A stretch of DNA of 41,846 bases, taken from the NCBI GenBank assembly GCA_016931955.1, contig JAFGDV010000016.1, positions 1 to 41,846 on the forward strand. The letters run 5' to 3'. The notes beneath the pieces were generated by a model. It saw nothing but the letters and a program-made list of their open reading frames with translations, did no database searches and was not told the origin of the DNA. Position 1 is the first letter of the stretch; every line of letters starts with the position of its first letter. A program made the position numbers and the translations under genes. This document shows, one piece after another, positions 8,078 through 23,746 of the stretch. This DNA is from Candidatus Altiarchaeota archaeon. GTDB taxonomy: Archaea; Altiarchaeota; Altiarchaeia; IMC4; QMZM01.

Positions 8078-8169
8078 GCCCTCGTAGCTCAGCCTGGTGG
8101 AGCGCTTGCTTGGTATCAGAAAAGACGACAAAAAGCAAGAAGCCCCGGGTTCAAACCCCGGCGAGGGCT
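8078..8169 (+). tRNA. tRNA-Thr(GGT) with an 18-nt intron at the canonical 37/38 position (8116-8133)
   Basis: Acceptor GCCCTCG/CGAGGGC, D-stem GCTC/GAGC, anticodon stem CTTGC/GCAAG with TT-GGT-A, T-arm CCGGG-TTCAAAC-CCCGG. Discriminator T; no encoded CCA. Confidence 0.93.
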
Positions 8170-9199: not shown

Positions 9200-9772
9200 C
9201 TATTTCTCTTTTATCTTACATTCCTCCAGTTCTTCCGGCGATATCTTCATTTTATCCCTGAGTTCCTCGAATTTGCTGTCGTCGTAGGTGCAGCAATCAT
9301 ATCTTGAGATGAACTCCAACCACCACTGAGGAATCTCTTTCCTTATGCTTTCATAGATCCTAAACGCTTTTTCCTTGAAATCCTCAGAAAGCCTATGAGC
9401 CATCGGGCAGTTCTTGTAGTCGACGAAAATCCTGACCTCATCACCTGAAAGCCCGACGAGAACGGGATAAAGCATACCACTTATCGGCTTGCAATTGAAT
9501 TTCTCCAACTCGCACCTGTTCTCCTTGTCTAGGAAAGGACAATCCCCTGCAAGCTTTATCATGTAAACCTCCTCCCCCCGAAATTCGACTATGTTACAGA
9601 CCCTGTCTATGAATTCCTGAGGAGTTAAGTCAAGTTTTTTTGCTATGAACTCCACCTCGCCGGGGAGAAACAAGGCTATCTGATCTCTCTCGCATTTACC
9701 ACCGCATTCACGGCATAAATCAACAATCAAGCCGTCGAATTCCTGATGAATCCGCTCAAAATCAATCGCCAT
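9200..9772 (-). CDS. YkgJ-like cysteine-cluster (Zn/Fe-chelating) protein
   Basis: CRECGGKC and CPFLDKENRC...KP...LYP pattern. Confidence 0.7.
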   Translation of the reverse strand: MAIDFERIHQEFDGLIVDLCRECGGKCERDQIALFLPGEVEFIAKKLDLTPQEFIDRVCNIVEFRGEEVYMIKLAGDCPFLDKENRCELEKFNCKPISGMLYPVLVGLSGDEVRIFVDYKNCPMAHRLSEDFKEKAFRIYESIRKEIPQWWLEFISRYDCCTYDDSKFEELRDKMKISPEELEECKIKEK

Positions 9773-9816
9773 ATAACATAATAGGCTGCAAAAGATAAAG
9801 GAGGGTATATTAAGCC

Positions 9817-10083
9817 ATGAGGGGAGTTATTAATATGGGCTTCTTGGATAGGTTGTTTGGGTTTACAAGATCTTTGTCGAGGGGCAGATACGCATCCTTC
9901 GAAGGACTTCTATCAGGCAAAATAAGGCCGGCATCAGAGTTGGAGGTCAGAGACCAGCTGCTGAGGCTGGCGGAAAAAGATGAAAAACTCAGGAAAGCGT
10001 TGACTGCTTACGTAGAATCCGGCGAATACAAGAAGAGCCCCTTCATAAAAAAAGAGGGGGGAAGCAGCGTCATAAAGAGGTAA
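9817..10083 (+). CDS. Small basic hypothetical protein coupled to the AEP gene (alternative start 9835, MGFLDRLFG)
   Basis: SD-like purine runs precede both ATGs. The stop is 1 nt before the AEP ATG. Amphipathic N-terminus. Confidence 0.75.
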   Translation: MRGVINMGFLDRLFGFTRSLSRGRYASFEGLLSGKIRPASELEVRDQLLRLAEKDEKLRKALTAYVESGEYKKSPFIKKEGGSSVIKR

Positions 10084-10084
10084 C

Positions 10085-11281
10085 ATGAAGGACTTAATCC
10101 CAGACCTGAAGTTCCGGCACATAAGGTTCGTCAACCAGGATGGGAGGTTCATCAAAGCCAGGAGAAAGTTCAGATACTATCATGAACTCCTGGAGTTCCT
10201 GAAGAAAAAAAAGGCTGCTGATTCCTATTACTCAACTGCTAAGTGGCTTAATCCTGAGAGGATAACGCAGGAAAAAAAGGAGGGCGACTATGATACCGTT
10301 TTCCTGGGCTGCGACCTGTTCTTCGACGTCGACTCAAATGAGAAAAACATATTCAAGGTCGTGGAGGAAACACGAGAAGGGGTTAAAAGGGTTCTGGATT
10401 TCATCCGCTGGAAGGGGTGGGAGATAAGATACATTGCATTCTCTGGGGCAAAGGGATTCCATGTATCCGTAAAGGATCCACTGGCTTATTCCTCACCTGA
10501 GCCGAAGAAGAGGGAAACTGAAGCCAAAGAATTCAGGGCAAAAATCGCCAGAGAGGTTACTAAGAAAGGCCTTAACGTGGACTTGGGTGTTCTAAAAGAT
10601 GTAAGAAGGATCGTCAGAATCCCGTTCACCTACAACTCCAGGAGCGGCTACATGTGTTACCCGATCCAAGAAAAAGACCTCGACCTGGAACCGAAAGAAT
10701 TTTTAGGTAGAATACCTAAGATAGGTTATGGAGGGACGAGCCCGTTAAAGCGGGCGATGAAGGCGCTTCGCCTGATCAGAAAATCCCTGGCTTGTGGGTT
10801 CCCCTCCACCCCACAGGCTGAGTACTACATCGGCTTCTCTGTTTCCTCTACAATCGCGGGAACAAAAAGACACACTCTGATGCTGGAATTCGACAACAAG
10901 ATAGACATTACAGGTATCATAGATTACCTGGGGGATAGAGAGATTATCCCGTTATACACCTACAGAGACTATATCTCAACCCTCGTTTTTTCGCCGACGG
11001 CCTTAGACAGGGGGATGATATTGAAGACCATGAAGAGATTCAATGCGAGAAACTATAACGCCTTCAAGAAATACTCGCACAGTCTGATGAGGGTGGGGAG
11101 ATTCTATACGCCATCTTTCAGGGAGGTTGCCTGGGAGGTTGAGTGCAGAGAAATCATTGGAAAAACATCTGACAGATATCCCTGCTCAAGGGCGCACTGC
11201 CTCCTGCTGGATAGAGATGATAGAACCAACGTCTGCGGCAGCGAAGAAGTCATAGTCAGGCTTGCCAAGATAACACCTTAG
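10085..11281 (+). CDS. Stand-alone archaeo-eukaryotic primase (PriS-like AEP) with an additional C-terminal domain
   Basis: Motif I DLFFDVD, motif II FSGAKGFHV and motif III DxxxxxDVRRIVRIPFTYN, plus YYSTAKW. About 150-aa C-terminal extension after a linker. Confidence 0.88.
   Translation: MKDLIPDLKFRHIRFVNQDGRFIKARRKFRYYHELLEFLKKKKAADSYYSTAKWLNPERITQEKKEGDYDTVFLGCDLFFDVDSNEKNIFKVVEETREGVKRVLDFIRWKGWEIRYIAFSGAKGFHVSVKDPLAYSSPEPKKRETEAKEFRAKIAREVTKKGLNVDLGVLKDVRRIVRIPFTYNSRSGYMCYPIQEKDLDLEPKEFLGRIPKIGYGGTSPLKRAMKALRLIRKSLACGFPSTPQAEYYIGFSVSSTIAGTKRHTLMLEFDNKIDITGIIDYLGDREIIPLYTYRDYISTLVFSPTALDRGMILKTMKRFNARNYNAFKKYSHSLMRVGRFYTPSFREVAWEVECREIIGKTSDRYPCSRAHCLLLDRDDRTNVCGSEEVIVRLAKITP
10701..10820 (+). 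ncRNA. Putative structured RNA element embedded in the AEP linker codons
   Basis: Four hairpins, a GAUGA...GA kink-turn-like motif and a 7-bp pseudoknot (10729-10735 with 10802-10808). Folded by eye only. Confidence 0.5.
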
Positions 11282-11283
11282 AG

Positions 11284-11913
11284 CTATTCGATTGAGTAAT
11301 CGAGTCTCGCAAGCCCCTTAAGTTTTTCTATCATCTCCCCTGAGGAGTCGAATACTGTGATAGTGTCTACTTCATTGTCCCAGAAGGGGTCTTTCCTGTT
11401 CATGTAGATGCCCTCTTCGGTGTTTAAGCCTTCTCCCGTATGAATCGACACAGAGGCTCCGGCTTTCAGATAGAATTCCGGCAACTCGAACGTGCTCTTA
11501 TAGTTCTTGTTCCTGATCCTCCAACCAGTCAGATTCACCGTATAGTCTCCAGTGTTCTTGAGTATAATCCATTCCTCCTCAAGGAAACTCTTCTCTGGTG
11601 TGTATGGGGACTCAAACTGGTAGCCTGCAATCCTCACGTCACTGCTGGTCTTCAGGATGGGAAGGGTTGTTGTGGAGGTTGTTGTCGTCGAAGTCGTCGT
11701 AGATGTTGACGTAGTAGTTGACGTGGTCGACGTCGTGGTTGAGGAGGATGTTGTAACCGCAGGCTGCTGGAGGCAACAAAAGGAATATGCTAAGAAAACG
11801 AGAAAAACCAAGAGAGCGAAAAAAGCCAAGACAAACAAGGGGGATATCTTCTTAGGTTTTTTGGGTTTCTTAGGAGTCTCCTCTTTAGCGGGTTGGGGGG
11901 TTTTTTCTTCCAT
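11284..11913 (-). CDS. Membrane-anchored lamin-tail-domain protein with Thr/Ser linker
   Basis: TM helix, TTTS-rich linker, EWIILKNTG...VNLTGWRI and WDNEVDTITVFD. Start ATG 11913; the longer ORF overlaps hxlB antisense. Confidence 0.88.
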   Translation of the reverse strand: MEEKTPQPAKEETPKKPKKPKKISPLFVLAFFALLVFLVFLAYSFCCLQQPAVTTSSSTTTSTTSTTTSTSTTTSTTTTSTTTLPILKTSSDVRIAGYQFESPYTPEKSFLEEEWIILKNTGDYTVNLTGWRIRNKNYKSTFELPEFYLKAGASVSIHTGEGLNTEEGIYMNRKDPFWDNEVDTITVFDSSGEMIEKLKGLARLDYSIE

Positions 11914-11980
11914 CCTAATACTACAATGGAATTCCAGCAAATAAAACCTTAATTTATTCGCTGAATGGTAATAGATAAAC

Positions 11981-12571
11981 ATGCCAGTGAAGGTCAAGAA
12001 CGCGATGCGCAGCATAGCCAGACACGTCGACAAGATCATAGAGGAACTGGATAACACAGAGATAGAAGAGATGATGAAGCAGATAAAGGGGGCTGATAAG
12101 ATATTCCTCATCGGCGCCGGCCGCTCAGGTCTTGTGGGTAAGACATTCGCCATGCGGCTTGCGCAGCTTGGACTGACGGTTTATGTTATAGGTGAGAGCG
12201 TAACCCCCGCGATGAGCGACAAGGACCTGCTCATAGCGATATCCGGTTCAGGAGAGACCAGTTCGGTTGTCAACGCGGCGAAGACCGCTAAGGGCGTCGG
12301 TTCTAAGATCTTGGCTGTAACCTCCTACCCAAAATCCAGCCTCTGCAAGGTCGCTGATTCCATCGTCGTAGTAAAGGGGAGGACTAAGATCGACATAGAA
12401 AAAGACCACATAAAGAACCTGATAGAGGGAACACACACCTCTCTGACCCCTTTGGGGACATTATTCGAGGACTCTGTGATGATATTCTTTGATGGGGTCA
12501 CGGCTGGATTGATGACGCGTCTTAGGAAGGGAGAAGCCGACTTGAAGAACAGGCACGCGACCCTTGAGTGA
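11981..12571 (+). CDS. hxlB: 6-phospho-3-hexuloisomerase (SIS domain)
   Basis: Motifs GAGRSGLV, FAMRL, ISGSGET, PLGTLFE and C-terminal RHATLE. Confidence 0.95.
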   Translation: MPVKVKNAMRSIARHVDKIIEELDNTEIEEMMKQIKGADKIFLIGAGRSGLVGKTFAMRLAQLGLTVYVIGESVTPAMSDKDLLIAISGSGETSSVVNAAKTAKGVGSKILAVTSYPKSSLCKVADSIVVVKGRTKIDIEKDHIKNLIEGTHTSLTPLGTLFEDSVMIFFDGVTAGLMTRLRKGEADLKNRHATLE

Positions 12572-18436: not shown

Positions 18437-18537
18437 CCCTTTTTGGGTAAATATTCAAAATATTTTAAGTATTTAGAAACGATTCCTTATAAATGGAGTA
18501 CTCGACCAGATTTAAGAAAACGATATCAATTATCCTC

Positions 18538-19620
18538 ATGGACAGAATCATAATGCACGTGGACTTAGACTCATTCTATGCTTCCCTGGAAGAGAAGAGG
18601 ACTCCAGGGATAAGGGATAAACCGGTGGTCGTATGCATCTACTCCGGCAGAGCGGAAGACAGCGGGGCTGTGAGCACCGCCAACTATAAAGCAAGGGGGT
18701 TAGGGATCAAGGCAGGTATGCCTATAAAGCAGGCGAAGAGGCTTGCTGAAGGAACCGACAGAGTATTCCTGCCAGCGGACAAAGAACACTATTCAGACGT
18801 CTCGGACAGGATAATGGATCTACTGGAGGACTACTCCAACACCTTGGAGCAGGTCAGCATCGACGAAGCCTACCTTGATGTGACTGAAAAAACTGGGGGA
18901 AACTGGGTTAGGGCAGAAGAGACTGCAGAAGAGATAAAAGAGGGGATAAAAGGGGGGGAAGGCCTCACCTGTTCAGTCGGCGTCGGACCTAACAAATTTG
19001 TTGCGAAGATGGCTTCCAAGCACAAAAAACCTGACGGGTTGACTGTCGTCAGAATAGAGGAAGTGAAGGCCTTCTTAGAGAACATACCCGTTATTGAACT
19101 ACACGGCTTAGGCCCTAAAACAGCTGACGCCTTATATGAACTGGGGATAGAGACTGCCGGCGAACTGGCTGCCTTCGATTTAGTCCGATTGGAAGAGGAA
19201 TTCGGCAGAAACAGGGCTAGATTCCTCCACAACATATCCCATGGAATAGACGACTCACAAGTAGAGCACAGAGAAAAACAGCAGATTGGAAGGATCGGGA
19301 CCCTGAAGGAGGACACATCAGAACCTGAGGTGGTCTTTGAAAAGATCAAGGAGCTCTCAGGGGACCTAGGAAATAGGGTGATGGGAGAGGGTGTGAGGTT
19401 CAGGACCGTCTCCCTCATCTTTGTGGATACAACACTTAAGACCCACTCGAAGAGCGAAACCATTTCTGAGACAGATGACATTGAGATTGTTCTCCGGGTA
19501 GCGGGGAAACTCCTCAAGGAATTCCTGGAAGAAAATTGGGGAACAAGGCTGCGCAGGGTCGGCTTAAGGGTCTCCAACCTATCTCGTGGAAGAGAACAGA
19601 AAACACTGACAGAGTTCTAG
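18538..19620 (+). CDS. dinB: Y-family DNA polymerase IV
   Basis: Motifs HVDLDSFYAS, ANYKAR, SIDEAYLD, KFVAKMAS and KPDG, plus little-finger RRVGLRVS. Start ATG 18538. Confidence 0.96.
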   Translation: MDRIIMHVDLDSFYASLEEKRTPGIRDKPVVVCIYSGRAEDSGAVSTANYKARGLGIKAGMPIKQAKRLAEGTDRVFLPADKEHYSDVSDRIMDLLEDYSNTLEQVSIDEAYLDVTEKTGGNWVRAEETAEEIKEGIKGGEGLTCSVGVGPNKFVAKMASKHKKPDGLTVVRIEEVKAFLENIPVIELHGLGPKTADALYELGIETAGELAAFDLVRLEEEFGRNRARFLHNISHGIDDSQVEHREKQQIGRIGTLKEDTSEPEVVFEKIKELSGDLGNRVMGEGVRFRTVSLIFVDTTLKTHSKSETISETDDIEIVLRVAGKLLKEFLEENWGTRLRRVGLRVSNLSRGREQKTLTEF

Positions 19621-21462: not shown

Positions 21463-22410
21463 ATGACGGAACCCGAACCGAATGTTGTGGTAAGCAAGTG
21501 CCTGGGCTTCGAAGCCTGCCGATACAATGGACAGATCATAGAAGACCGGTTCGTGAAAAAACTAGAGGAATACGTGAACTATATCCCAGTATGCGCTGAA
21601 GTTGAGATCGGCTTAGGGGTTCCAAGGGATCCGATAAGGGTCATACAATCCGGAGGAGAGAGAAAACTTATGCAGCCCAACACCGGCAGAGACGTCAGCA
21701 AGGAGATGGATGACTTCTCTGAGCGATTTCTCTCTTCCTTGAAGAACGTAGACGGCTTCATACTGAAGAACAGATCACCCTCCTGCGGAATCAAAGACGT
21801 AAGAATCTATTCAGGAATGGGGAGGGGAGAGAATATCGGAAAAGGGGCCGGCTTCTTCGGCGGCCGCGTTCTAGAGAGATTCCTCGGCCTAGCAGTCGAA
21901 GACGAAGGCAGGCTAAAAGACTATAGGATAAGGGAGCATTTTCTGACGAAGCTATACACCCTCGCAAGATTCCGTCAAGTAAAGAATAAGAGAGAACTCC
22001 AGGACTTCCATGCTAGAAACAAATACCTGCTGACAGCATACAACCAAGAAGAGATGCGCATTCTAGGTAGGATAGCGGCGAACCCTGGGGAGGATTCTCT
22101 GGAAAGATACAGGGAACATCTGGGCAAGGCCCTATACAGAGCGCCTAGCTGTAAGTCAAACATCAACGTCCTCATGCACGTATTCGGCTACTTCAAGGAT
22201 AAACTTTCCCCAGGAGAGAAGGCCTTCTTCCATGAGACCCTAGACAGATACAGAAACAGAAGAGCCTCCATCGGATCCCTTCAGAGCGTGCTCAGTTCCT
22301 GGACTATAAGGTTCGGGGAAGACTACCTTGAAGAACAGACCTTCTTCAACCCATACCCAGGAGACCTTATCAAATTAGTGGATGAGTGCATATGCAAGGA
22401 TGAAACATAA
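21463..22410 (+). CDS. DUF523 (TudS-like) + DUF1722 protein (YbgA-like)
   Basis: Motifs VSKCLG..CRYNG, CAEVEIGLGVPR, SPSCG, EDEGRL, FHARNKY, HVFGYFK and FFNPYP. Confidence 0.92.
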   Translation: MTEPEPNVVVSKCLGFEACRYNGQIIEDRFVKKLEEYVNYIPVCAEVEIGLGVPRDPIRVIQSGGERKLMQPNTGRDVSKEMDDFSERFLSSLKNVDGFILKNRSPSCGIKDVRIYSGMGRGENIGKGAGFFGGRVLERFLGLAVEDEGRLKDYRIREHFLTKLYTLARFRQVKNKRELQDFHARNKYLLTAYNQEEMRILGRIAANPGEDSLERYREHLGKALYRAPSCKSNINVLMHVFGYFKDKLSPGEKAFFHETLDRYRNRRASIGSLQSVLSSWTIRFGEDYLEEQTFFNPYPGDLIKLVDECICKDET

Positions 22411-23746
22411 AAAAGCCTTGTTCGTATTCAGGCGTGATCTCCGCCTGGAAGACAACACAGGATTGATCGAAGCAATGAGTTCCTCCACGGAAGTCCTGCC
22501 CTGCTTCATCTTCGACCCAAGGCAGATAGAAGACAACAGATACAGAAGCAATAATGCACTGCAGTTCATGCTCGAATCATTGCAAGACCTTGAAAGACAG
22601 TTGAAGGAAGCAGAGGGAAGGCTTTATTTCTTCCATGGGAAACCTGAAGACGTCGTAGAAAAACTGGACACAATAGATGCAGTCTACGTGAACAGAGATT
22701 ATACGCCATTCAGCAAGGAACGGGATGACGCCATAAGAAGTATCTGTGAGAGAAAAAACGTTCAATTCAGGCAAAGTGGGGATTCACTACTAAACGAACC
22801 TGAAGCGGTCTTGAAGAAAGACGGGAAACCATACACCGTATTCACGCCCTACCTGAGGAAGGCAATAAACCTAGAGGTGAGGAAGCCCCAGGAAAACAAG
22901 TACAGGAACTACTGCACAGAGGATCTGCCCTTCGAGGAGGAGAATAAAGTCTATGAGAGAGATAAAAGCATAAAGGTCCACGGGGGGAGAACCAACGCCC
23001 TCAGAATCCTCCAGGATCTGGGAGAATACGAAGACTACGACGATGAAAGAAATTACCCCTCATTGGATGCGACAACCCACCTATCAGCGCACAACAAGTT
23101 TGGGACATGCTCCATAAGGGAAGTCTACCACGCAATCAAGGGAAAACTCGGCGGAATACACGCGCTTCTGACGGAACTCTATTGGAGGGATTTCTTCACC
23201 CAAATAGGATTCTATTTCCCGCACATCTTCGGCGGAGCATTCAAAGGGGGATACGACAACGTGAAGTGGAGCTACGACAAGGAAAAATTCAGGCTATGGT
23301 GCAATGGACTCACGGGTTTCCCGATCGTAGACGCCGGCATGCGAGAATTAAATTCCACTGGATTCATGCACAACCGCGTCAGGATGATCACATCGTCCTT
23401 TTTAACCAAGGACCTGCACATCGACTGGCTGTGGGGTGAACGCTACTTCGCACAAAATCTGGTGGACTATGATCCCTGCGTGAACAACGGAAACTGGCAG
23501 TGGGCTTCCTCAACCGGCTGCGACTCACAACCGTATTTCCGAGTCTTCAATCCCTGGCTACAACAGAAGAAATACGACCCAGAGTGCGGGTACATCAAAA
23601 AATGGATCCCCGAACTAAAGGATTTGACGGCTGAAGGGATACACAACCTCCATGAGAAAAGACCTCCAACAGAGTACCCCAAGCCGATAGTCGACCACTC
23701 AATAGAAAGCAGAAAAGCAAAGAATATGTTTAAGAAGGCGAGATAG
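22400..23746 (+). CDS. phr: Deoxyribodipyrimidine photolyase / cryptochrome family
   Basis: Motifs FRRDLRLEDN, TTHLSAH, LYWRDF, TGFPIVDAGMREL, MHNRVRM, DYD..NNGNWQW and FRVFNP. Start ATG 22400. Confidence 0.95.
   Translation: MKHKKALFVFRRDLRLEDNTGLIEAMSSSTEVLPCFIFDPRQIEDNRYRSNNALQFMLESLQDLERQLKEAEGRLYFFHGKPEDVVEKLDTIDAVYVNRDYTPFSKERDDAIRSICERKNVQFRQSGDSLLNEPEAVLKKDGKPYTVFTPYLRKAINLEVRKPQENKYRNYCTEDLPFEEENKVYERDKSIKVHGGRTNALRILQDLGEYEDYDDERNYPSLDATTHLSAHNKFGTCSIREVYHAIKGKLGGIHALLTELYWRDFFTQIGFYFPHIFGGAFKGGYDNVKWSYDKEKFRLWCNGLTGFPIVDAGMRELNSTGFMHNRVRMITSSFLTKDLHIDWLWGERYFAQNLVDYDPCVNNGNWQWASSTGCDSQPYFRVFNPWLQQKKYDPECGYIKKWIPELKDLTAEGIHNLHEKRPPTEYPKPIVDHSIESRKAKNMFKKAR

Follow-up and report, generated by a model that had tools for sequence, protein, structure and literature searches.

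An archaeal PriS paralog and its linked small partner protein, a candidate second primase-polymerase

Archaea are usually credited with one primase, PriS/PriL, sometimes supplemented by PriX. In a 41,846-nucleotide (nt) stretch of the genome of a Candidatus Altiarchaeota archaeon (positions 1 to 41,846 of contig JAFGDV010000016.1, assembly GCA_016931955.1; hereafter the window) we find two adjacent genes, one encoding a PriS-like protein from the superfamily of archaeo-eukaryotic primases (AEP) and the other a small protein that accompanies relatives of this enzyme in several archaeal phyla. We consider there to be an even chance that the two gene products form a two-subunit, non-replicative, probably membrane-tethered primase-polymerase that works beside the normal PriS/PriL of the cell.

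The small partner gene lies at 9835..10083 (+) and encodes 82 amino acids (aa) from an ATG at 9835, within a longest open reading frame (ORF) of 88 aa at 9817-10083. The ATG at 9835, giving a product that begins MGFLDRLFG, is probably the true start because the ortholog in a genome of the same genus (L005/L024) begins at exactly that MGFL. A TATA-like element, TATATTAA, is located at 9806-9813 (i.e. approximately 22-29 nt 5′ of this ATG), and we infer that the small-gene transcript is leaderless. The TAA stop codon (10081-10083) is separated by a single base (10084) from the ATG (10085) of the AEP gene, a 398-aa ORF at 10085..11281 (+). The neighbouring ORFs on both sides, at 9200-9772 and 11284-12153, are on the minus strand. 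An earlier reading of this DNA by a model that saw only the sequence (the original prediction) had proposed a two-gene unit with this spacing, bounded by oppositely oriented genes, and both features are confirmed on the ORF list and the sequence.

The large protein belongs to the AEP superfamily and is nearest to PriS. Its PriS-like catalytic domain comprises residues 1-215 (10085..10729, +). A profile of 61 members of the protein family matched the archaeal PriS structures in the PDB (1zt2_A with E 5.9e-20, 1g71_A with E 2e-18 and 1v33 with E 1.2e-15). An AlphaFold model of the 398-aa protein has a mean predicted local distance difference test score (pLDDT) of 91.4, and on searching the PDB with Foldseek PriS chains rank first, the best being 5of3_A (E 2.6e-8, template modelling (TM) scores of 0.39/0.48). 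Polymerase-domain (PolDom) structures of LigD are also among the matches. Within the family the Pfam model PF01896 is matched at E ≤ 0.01 by 41 of the 61 members, and weak matches to LigD_Prim-Pol occur in nine.

All three AEP catalytic motifs are intact, as had been claimed from the sequence, and they are conserved across the 49 N-terminal domains that were aligned. Motif I, D81-V-D83 (10325..10333, +), carries the metal ligands; it fits hhhDhD and is invariant in all 49. Motif II, S120-G-A-K-G-F-H126 (10442..10462, +), fits sGxGxH, and F119 together with six of the seven motif positions is invariant in the same set. Motif III comprises D172 with R174, R175, R178 and P180 of the strand that comes after it (10598..10624, +), every one of them invariant (49/49), so that the Asp and the basic 'flange' residue typical of PriS-like AEPs are both present. 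The invariance of these residues indicates that the active site is under selection. The protein lies far below the NCBIfam equivalog cut-offs for PriS (48.6 against 326 bits for NF001641, and 37.6 against 143.5 bits for TIGR00335). In the alignment it lacks an insertion of some 36 residues found between motifs I and II in the Sulfolobus solfataricus chain, and it has Asn184 after motif III where the aligned archaeal PriS chains carry His.

Judged from its sequence, the large protein is a paralog of PriS, other than the replicative PriS of the organism. The same genome encodes a canonical PriS elsewhere (G000:C13:21333-21992, in a 386-aa frame) that scores 55 bits, above the Pfam cut-off, and a canonical PriL on contig C26 (76.5 bits). 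Five further genomes that carry the family were tested, from Methanoregulaceae, Thalassarchaeaceae, Methanomassiliicoccales, Micrarchaeota and Bathyarchaeota, and each contains a better-scoring PriS at another position. In a quick maximum-likelihood tree a single branch parts the 49 family N-domains from 19 canonical PriS sequences (17 of which come from the window's own class) with an SH-aLRT support of 100. The original prediction had described a non-replicative AEP module, and had named as evidence to the contrary that the gene be the only priS of the genome and group with replicative PriS. A separate priS and priL, and the division in the tree, came out in favour of a non-replicative paralog.

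The family tree largely follows taxonomy. The window copy groups with those of Micrarchaeota (support 99), and the copy in another genome of the same class (G010) is placed elsewhere. The history of the family appears to be old, with some loss or transfer. We note that canonical PriS is present as two adjacent ORFs in L109 (G061:C1:230200-232100, Methanoregulaceae) and L110 (G063:C1:1220700-1222700, Methanomassiliicoccales), the pairs being of 185 + 176 aa and 162 + 281 aa; this may be a split gene or a fault of ORF calling.

The family is broad. When 1.84 billion cluster representatives were searched exhaustively with HMMER, 413 proteins matched at E ≤ 0.001; the number falls to 145 at E ≤ 1e-10 and to 35 at E ≤ 1e-30. 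The majority are about 400 aa in length and align across both domains, and the matched representatives span Micrarchaeota, Bathyarchaeia, Methanomicrobiales, Thermoplasmatota, Undinarchaeota and Heimdallarchaeota. A search of GTDB contigs (one genome per species) with a six-sequence alignment found 156 stretches encoding relatives, of which 80 loci were analysed. These are from Altiarchaeota, Micrarchaeota/Anstonellales, Iainarchaeota, Undinarchaeota, Bathyarchaeia, Methanomicrobiales (mostly Methanoregula), Methanomassiliicoccales, marine group II/III Poseidoniia and Heimdallarchaeota, with a few short contigs in bins labelled as bacterial. An ortholog was detected at E ≤ 1e-20 in 34 of 61 sampled Poseidoniales genomes (of unstated completeness). 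Of 61 genomes in the window's own class three encode a true ortholog: the genome of the window, G010, and a relative of the same genus, whose copy is 65% identical. A further 36 matches in the class are of the N-terminal third to canonical PriS, with E ≥ 1.7e-7.

The loci in bacterial-labelled bins are L034, L054 and L076 (Thermodesulfobacteriales, Gemmatimonadales and Parachlamydia). For L034 and L076 mis-binning is likely, given contigs of about 2 kb and the near-identity of L076 to a locus labelled Nitrososphaerota. It is less obvious for L054, which lies on a 667-kb contig and may be a real bacterial copy.

The small gene accompanies the AEP gene. In the same-genus genome an 81-aa gene whose product begins MGFLSKLFG lies 1 nt 5′ of the AEP gene, and in G010 a 119-aa upstream gene overlaps its start. 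The partner proteins share a core of about 65 residues, with the pattern Y-x-[RS]-[IL]-x-x-W-[IL]-K ... K-x-G-F-x-x-Y-I-x-x-x-x-Y-x-x-L. An iterated hidden Markov model of this core detected an adjacent partner on the same strand at 51 of 79 loci; the partner lies upstream of the AEP gene at 39 of these and downstream of it at the other 12. For the upstream class the gap between the genes is mostly between -8 and +13 nt. The downstream cases are in Methanomassiliicoccales and other Thermoplasmata, where the order is inverted with retention of the linkage. Conservation of the small upstream gene, on which the original prediction placed weight, is thus borne out, with tight linkage across phyla. 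The core belongs to no Pfam family, the partner proteins matching Pfam only in occasional zinc ribbons, and no relative of the partner was found in the PDB. No fused partner-AEP form was seen among the longer proteins, which is weak evidence.

The 28 loci for which no partner was found comprise 21 from Poseidoniales and seven others. L034, L055 and L082 are without upstream sequence because the AEP gene is within about 150 nt of the contig end. L063 and L074 are from marine group III; the contig of L063 stops approximately 160 nt past the AEP gene, and the downstream ORF of L074 groups by BLAST with the Methanomassiliicoccales partners. L086 and L087 are from Heimdallarchaeota, and the upstream protein of L087 has a transmembrane segment and a zinc ribbon.

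In the 21 Poseidoniales loci the AEP gene is followed on the same strand by a gene for a conserved protein 230-440 aa long. This carries hydrophobic segments in its N-terminal part and a Y-D-R-L-I motif, and its C-terminus is a cysteine-rich finger. It has no Pfam match at E ≤ 0.001. Alignment with the partner profile (hhalign probability 5.9%) did not establish homology, and we count this protein as a candidate analogue. Its finger has the invariant form C-G-x-x-x-C ... F-x-C-x-x-C-R-x-R-x-C ... C-x-x-C (L066, 5361-6101 (+), and 20 related loci). A 928-aa helicase of the ResIII/DEAD type lies directly after the candidate, convergent to it, in 19 of the 21 loci (L066, 6105-8891, -); this may be lineage synteny only.

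The N-terminus of the partner is of three kinds. The first has the form M-G-[FLI]-[FLW]-x-x-[LI]-x-x, and is found in the window, Micrarchaeota, many Bathyarchaeia, many Methanoregula and Methanomassiliicoccales. The sequence MGFLDRLFG recurs unchanged in L052, while that of L080 reads MGFLKKLFGG. In the second kind there is at least one strongly hydrophobic segment of 19 residues, with Kyte-Doolittle means of 2.1-3.2; this occurs in G010 (L006), Heimdallarchaeota and the Poseidoniales candidates. An N-terminus of the third kind carries a CxxC...CxxC zinc ribbon; some Methanomicrobiales have it, as does L052.

The first kind closely resembles the membrane-targeting tag of Escherichia coli MinD, KGFLKRLFGG, which a passage of PMC5471200 describes as a portable membrane anchor. 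GFLDRLFG in the window and GFLKKLFGG in L080 are near-identical to this short motif. In MinD the motif is C-terminal, whereas here it forms the extreme N-terminus of a small non-ATPase protein. On the basis of its recurrence and its likeness to the MinD tag, the segment MGFLDRLFGF of the window protein (9835..9864, +) is a putative amphipathic membrane-targeting sequence. The MinD-type motif and the transmembrane helices occupy the same position, suggesting that attachment to the membrane is a shared property, and the partner is probably attached in this way. The suggestion in the original prediction that the MGFLDRLFG protein is a membrane-targeted partner is made more plausible both by the likeness to MinD and by the replacement with transmembrane segments in other lineages.

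The C-terminal domain (CTD) of the large protein, residues 216-398 (10730..11278, +), is modelled as an alpha/beta fold with a pLDDT of 87.6. Its only nearly invariant residues are in the sequence S368-R-A-H371 (11186..11197, +). In 51 CTD sequences the His is invariant and the Ser is conserved in at least 90%, and S368 and H371 are nearly invariant in the 61 full-length members. There is no conserved cysteine in the 51 sequences, and this excludes an Fe-S domain of the PriL type. A member of 826 aa (P0146) has a LAGLIDADG-type intein (PF14528, residues 630-695) in its CTD directly before the S-R-A-H motif; the insert terminates in VHN, followed by Cys, and motif II of this protein is without its His.

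No sequence relative of the CTD was found in the PDB, no Pfam family recurs among the 51 members, and Foldseek gave no match at E ≤ 0.001 in either the PDB or BFVD. The original prediction had called the large protein a double-domain AEP. For the second domain there is a structural lead, taken from ESM Atlas rows for residues 250-427 of a Methanoregula homolog (P0154) that stands in for the window protein. The TM scores are 0.52 for the AEP-like PF24387, 0.51-0.52 for LigD Prim-Pol and 0.55 for AEP_C962R, each of them under the bar, and 0.77 and 0.65 for unnamed protein clusters of tailed viruses. The CTD is therefore possibly a degenerate second AEP-like fold by structural likeness. Support from sequence was absent, with no recurring Pfam family and a probability of 0.2% when the CTD was aligned with the N-terminal domain using hhalign.

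Prediction of a complex between the partner and the large protein gave a score of 0.72, compared with 0.01 for the best of three controls. This mark is reached by 58 of 80 solved complexes and by two of 110 mismatched pairs. The confident contacts are all on the CTD, involving residues 249-258, 334-348, 354, 370-376 and 386-397, and on the partner residues 21-33 and 45-73; the pLDDT of the partner in these runs was at least 56. The partner side of the predicted interface is thus the conserved core, and the N-terminal motif lies outside the confident contacts. In the model the partner probably docks on the CTD through its core. Such docking would account for the co-occurrence of the partner with this family-specific domain.

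These features suggest how the unit might function. The two genes would be translated from one operon across the 1-nt gap. The PriS-like domain would make or extend nucleic acid on a DNA template, as is suggested by the invariance of the metal and nucleotide ligands, while the family-specific CTD would substitute for the C-terminal and PriL-binding parts of PriS. The small subunit is predicted to bind the CTD through its conserved helical core, and its N-terminus would tie the enzyme to the cytoplasmic membrane, by a MinD-type motif in this genome and by transmembrane helices elsewhere. In some lineages a zinc ribbon on the small subunit would be present instead or in addition. The role may be in specialised priming, gap-filling or damage tolerance at the membrane, rather than in bulk replication of the chromosome.

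The closest comparison is with archaeal PriS/PriL(/PriX) (1zt2, 5of3, 1g71), which has the same catalytic fold with motifs I-III, and provides the best profile and Foldseek matches. Both systems combine a catalytic subunit with a non-catalytic accessory one bound away from the active site, this being a prediction for the pair described here. By contrast, the present family forms a separate clade with Asn in place of His and a different CTD, and in place of an Fe-S PriL its partner is a protein of 80-150 aa whose N-terminus is a membrane element or a zinc ribbon.

PolpTN2 from the Thermococcus nautilus plasmid pTN2 and the fused PriS-PriL of Nanoarchaeota have, according to passages of PMC3973330 and PMC3914693, a PriL-like C-terminal part with a 4Fe-4S cluster. 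They resemble the window protein in that a PriS-like AEP is joined, within a single chain, to a C-terminal module unlike that of PriS, and they act with no separate canonical PriL. They differ in that the CTD here has neither conserved cysteine nor similarity to PriL in sequence or fold, and the gene is chromosomal and has a separate small partner. Eukaryotic PrimPol and the polymerase domain of bacterial LigD are described in passages of PMC4538821 as second AEPs that serve in repriming, translesion synthesis and repair, and like the present protein they exist beside a replicative primase. The large subunit here has no zinc finger of the UL52 type, however, there is no ligase, Ku or nuclease gene nearby, and the family is closer to PriS than to either.

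The NCBI label for the Methanoregula and Poseidoniales members is 'hypothetical protein'. The family is not described in the portions of the literature on PriS paralogs and second archaeal primases that we covered, although the supplementary tables of PMC3914693 (on 'shell' copies of replication genes) and PMC5862659 may list members; the relevant passages of PMC3914693, PMC5862659, PMC4538821 and PMC12680538 contain no account of it. A separate ancient clade, a CTD of no recognisable family and a small partner of its own, whose membrane and zinc-ribbon heads can replace one another, make up a combination that appears to be undescribed and has no name in public annotation. The unit would be a second, ancient, chromosomal AEP enzyme with its own dedicated small subunit, carried by abundant uncultured groups that include marine Poseidoniales, Bathyarchaeia, Methanoregula, Methanomassiliicoccales and DPANN lineages. 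If it is indeed a membrane-tethered primase-polymerase, this would point to undescribed DNA transactions at the archaeal membrane, such as repair, repriming, or the handling of incoming or segregating DNA, and would extend the AEP repertoire by a new type of accessory subunit. It already provides a testable pair of proteins with a predicted interface.

Several observations weigh against such an enzyme. Activity, complex formation and localisation all draw their support from sequence analysis and structural modelling. The window protein scores 17.3 bits against PF01896, for which the cut-off is 26.8, and the change of His to Asn after motif III may mean that its chemistry differs from that of PriS. 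Three runs of the complex prediction gave scores of 0.72, 0.00 and 0.72, and the agreement in contacts between them is at least 0%, i.e. none is guaranteed. A partner common to the whole family is firm for the 51 of 79 loci only, given the low probability for the Poseidoniales protein. The zinc-ribbon N-terminus in Methanomicrobiales has no obvious membrane element, and in a hydrophobic-moment test 36% of shuffles reach the value of the window motif, N-termini of 11 residues being too short to discriminate. In the loci analysed no neighbour beyond the partner is common to different lineages, so the cellular role is a guess, and the patchy distribution in the window's class is compatible with an accessory no less than a housekeeping function.

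An unlikely alternative is that this is a replicative primase, acting as a second catalytic subunit for the chromosome or an extrachromosomal element, either with canonical PriL or with the partner and CTD in place of PriL/PriX. By both sequence and fold its nearest relatives are replicative PriS proteins, and the layout of catalytic plus accessory subunit mirrors that of PriS/PriL. The family is old, its tree largely taxonomic, and it is retained in the small genomes of DPANN archaea and Poseidoniales. LAGLIDADG inteins are typical of replication proteins, and one is present in P0146. Yet canonical PriS is kept in all six genomes tested, including that of the window, which keeps PriL also. 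The paralog is missing from most relatives in its own class, the CTD is devoid of conserved cysteines for an Fe-S cluster, and no replication gene is a conserved neighbour.

We regard as distinctly unlikely that the pair is an anti-virus or mobile-element module, in which a membrane-placed AEP would sense or act on foreign DNA or replicate an integrated element. The patchy distribution in the window's class would be consistent with this, as would the occurrence of two divergent subtypes in a single GTDB family (the clade of the window copy is not that of L006), the similarity of the CTD to tailed-virus clusters in the Atlas rows, and a location at the membrane that would suit surveillance of DNA entry. 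Direct searches were negative, however. PADLOC returned no match for either window protein; for the L006 partner it gave a weak match to ZorA (17.9 bits) confined to the transmembrane segment. In the viral contigs of IMG/VR two pattern scans found no close relative. The first, based on the alignment, found none at all; the second, with an extended DNA pattern, selected three contigs, two of which (L104 and L105) encode a distant AEP, the better with 24% identity and E 1e-5; the third (L106) had no tblastn match, and the partner gene was on none of the three.

The surroundings of the pair point the same way. Pfam was used to scan all 43 non-overlapping ORFs of at least 90 aa in the window, together with the small ORF and a gene for a SIS-domain protein. 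Among these there was no PriL, helicase, integrase, Cas, Ku or ligase gene, in agreement with the original prediction, which had noted the absence of PriL, helicase, integrase, Cas and non-homologous end-joining genes; nor was there a restriction or toxin gene in the window, or a nuclease gene near the pair. The window is ordinary archaeal chromosome, encoding triose-phosphate isomerase, a purF-like protein, ArgJ, carbamoyl-phosphate synthase, a UbiA prenyltransferase, SAICAR synthetase, a SIS-domain isomerase, eRF1 and superoxide dismutase. Downstream synteny is kept with the same-genus genome, and the pattern of occurrence looks vertical in Thermoplasmatota, Methanomicrobiales and Bathyarchaeia. 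The link to defence or mobile elements that had been entertained at the outset thus found no support in PADLOC, IMG/VR or the window.

The original prediction had also pointed to an RNA-like structure in the linker between the domains, and a locally stable fold is indeed present in the mRNA at 10701..10810 (+). It consists of a 9-bp hairpin and a three-hairpin domain closed by a long-range helix, and encodes residues 206-242, which form a low-confidence linker in the protein model (pLDDT 51-74). When 120-nt segments tiled over 9700-11409 were compared with 60 shuffles each, that at 10690-10809 was the most stable (z = -4.8), 10660-10779 had z = -3.0, and the rest were not below -2.7. The fold of 10690-10815 has z = -2.93, with two of 200 shuffles as good, and that of the wider stretch 10700-10860 has z = -1.83 (12 of 200).

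The structure is kept in the same-genus ortholog, these being the only two sequences available for comparison at this evolutionary distance. RNAalifold gave -37.4 kcal/mol with a covariation term of -4.5, and 34 consensus pairs of which none is broken and six have compensatory changes. On mapping the window fold onto the ortholog 96.2% of cells are paired, a value equalled by three of 500 shuffles. Varying pairs stay paired in 61-85% of cases across 10640-10864, compared with 45% over the whole gene (589/1314), and the pairwise structure conservation index at the fold is 0.79-0.94 against a gene mean of 0.44 (standard deviation 0.21), with ordinary sequence identity. The ortholog's own fold has z = 0.06, with 91 of 200 shuffles as good.

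Across the family no such signal was found. At the homologous 120-nt site z is below -2 in three of 25 homologs, compared with about 12 of 175 control segments, and in a 48-nt scan of 37 homologs the mean z at the site is -0.34, inside the range of -0.44 to +0.21 spanned by all other positions. When the 80 loci (611,784 nt, both strands) were searched with a covariance model built from the two-sequence consensus, five weak matches were obtained (21.1, 19.3, 14.2, 12.5 and 11.2 bits), all at the homologous site, and 75 loci gave none. A sequence-only model applied to 34 of the 80 picked up L028 alone, without finding L032 or L050. In a few lineages the linker site may have a faint tendency to pair.

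Two other identities for the fold were rejected. A C/D-box small RNA was suggested by GAUGA...CUGA, but the ortholog lacks the CUGA, its AUGAUGA is a pair of Met codons, and Rfam has no match to the linker structure. A repeated element is contradicted by the covariance model, which in the window's genome finds its own locus only.

It is very unlikely that the unit is a ribonucleoprotein, loosely retron-like, in which the linker of the enzyme's own mRNA would act as template, primer site or regulator, as had been proposed from the sequence. The stability of the fold within the gene, the compensated pairs and the five matches at the homologous site favour it. Against this, its support comes from two sequences, one of which is no more stable than its shuffles, the 37 homologs and 75 of the 80 loci lack the signal, and there is neither an Rfam match nor a second genomic copy. 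Moreover the segment encodes a conserved protein helix, S-x-L-x-x-A-M-x-A-L-R. A structure restricted to the genus cannot be integral to a module conserved across many archaeal phyla. The linker fold is a real genus-level mRNA structure that stands outside the conserved module and its mechanism, and possibly has an ordinary use, in translation pausing between the domains or in mRNA stability; no sign of its serving as template or primer was seen.

Lastly, the small protein might be a substrate, its invariant Tyr being nucleotidylated by the AEP, with the result either a covalent modification or synthesis primed by the protein. Among 29 partner sequences no residue other than Tyr19 is invariant, the 16 Poseidoniales downstream proteins compared likewise all have a Tyr in this motif, and Tyr19 immediately precedes the predicted interface segment 21-33; but the predicted contacts are on the CTD, away from the active-site domain, a Tyr that begins a helix may be invariant for structural reasons only, and no AEP is known to prime on a protein, so that we find this most unlikely. 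An elaboration in which the pair would be a self-contained, PriL-free membrane primase, the degenerate AEP-like domain with its Ser-x-x-His remnant serving as initiation site and the Tyr hydroxyl of the partner starting the chain, is an equally long shot.

Some further features of the window lie apart from the AEP pair. A Y-family (IMS/Dpo4-like) translesion polymerase is encoded at 18493-19620 (+) and a photolyase at 22382-23746 (+), some 7-11 kb downstream; they are too distant, and the linkage is too unconserved, for a functional connection to the pair. Rfam finds a tRNA of 92 nt at 8078-8169 (+) with 54.6 bits and E 4.1e-10, and ARAGORN reports no tRNA in the window; this is probably an intron-containing archaeal tRNA. 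The minus-strand ORF directly downstream of the pair (11284-12153) encodes a lamin-tail-domain protein that contains a long linker rich in Thr and Ser. In its longest form the ORF shares about 170 nt with the beginning of the SIS-domain gene (11981-12571, +), and the homolog in the same-genus genome has only 184 aa; the real start of the lamin-tail gene is probably further in.

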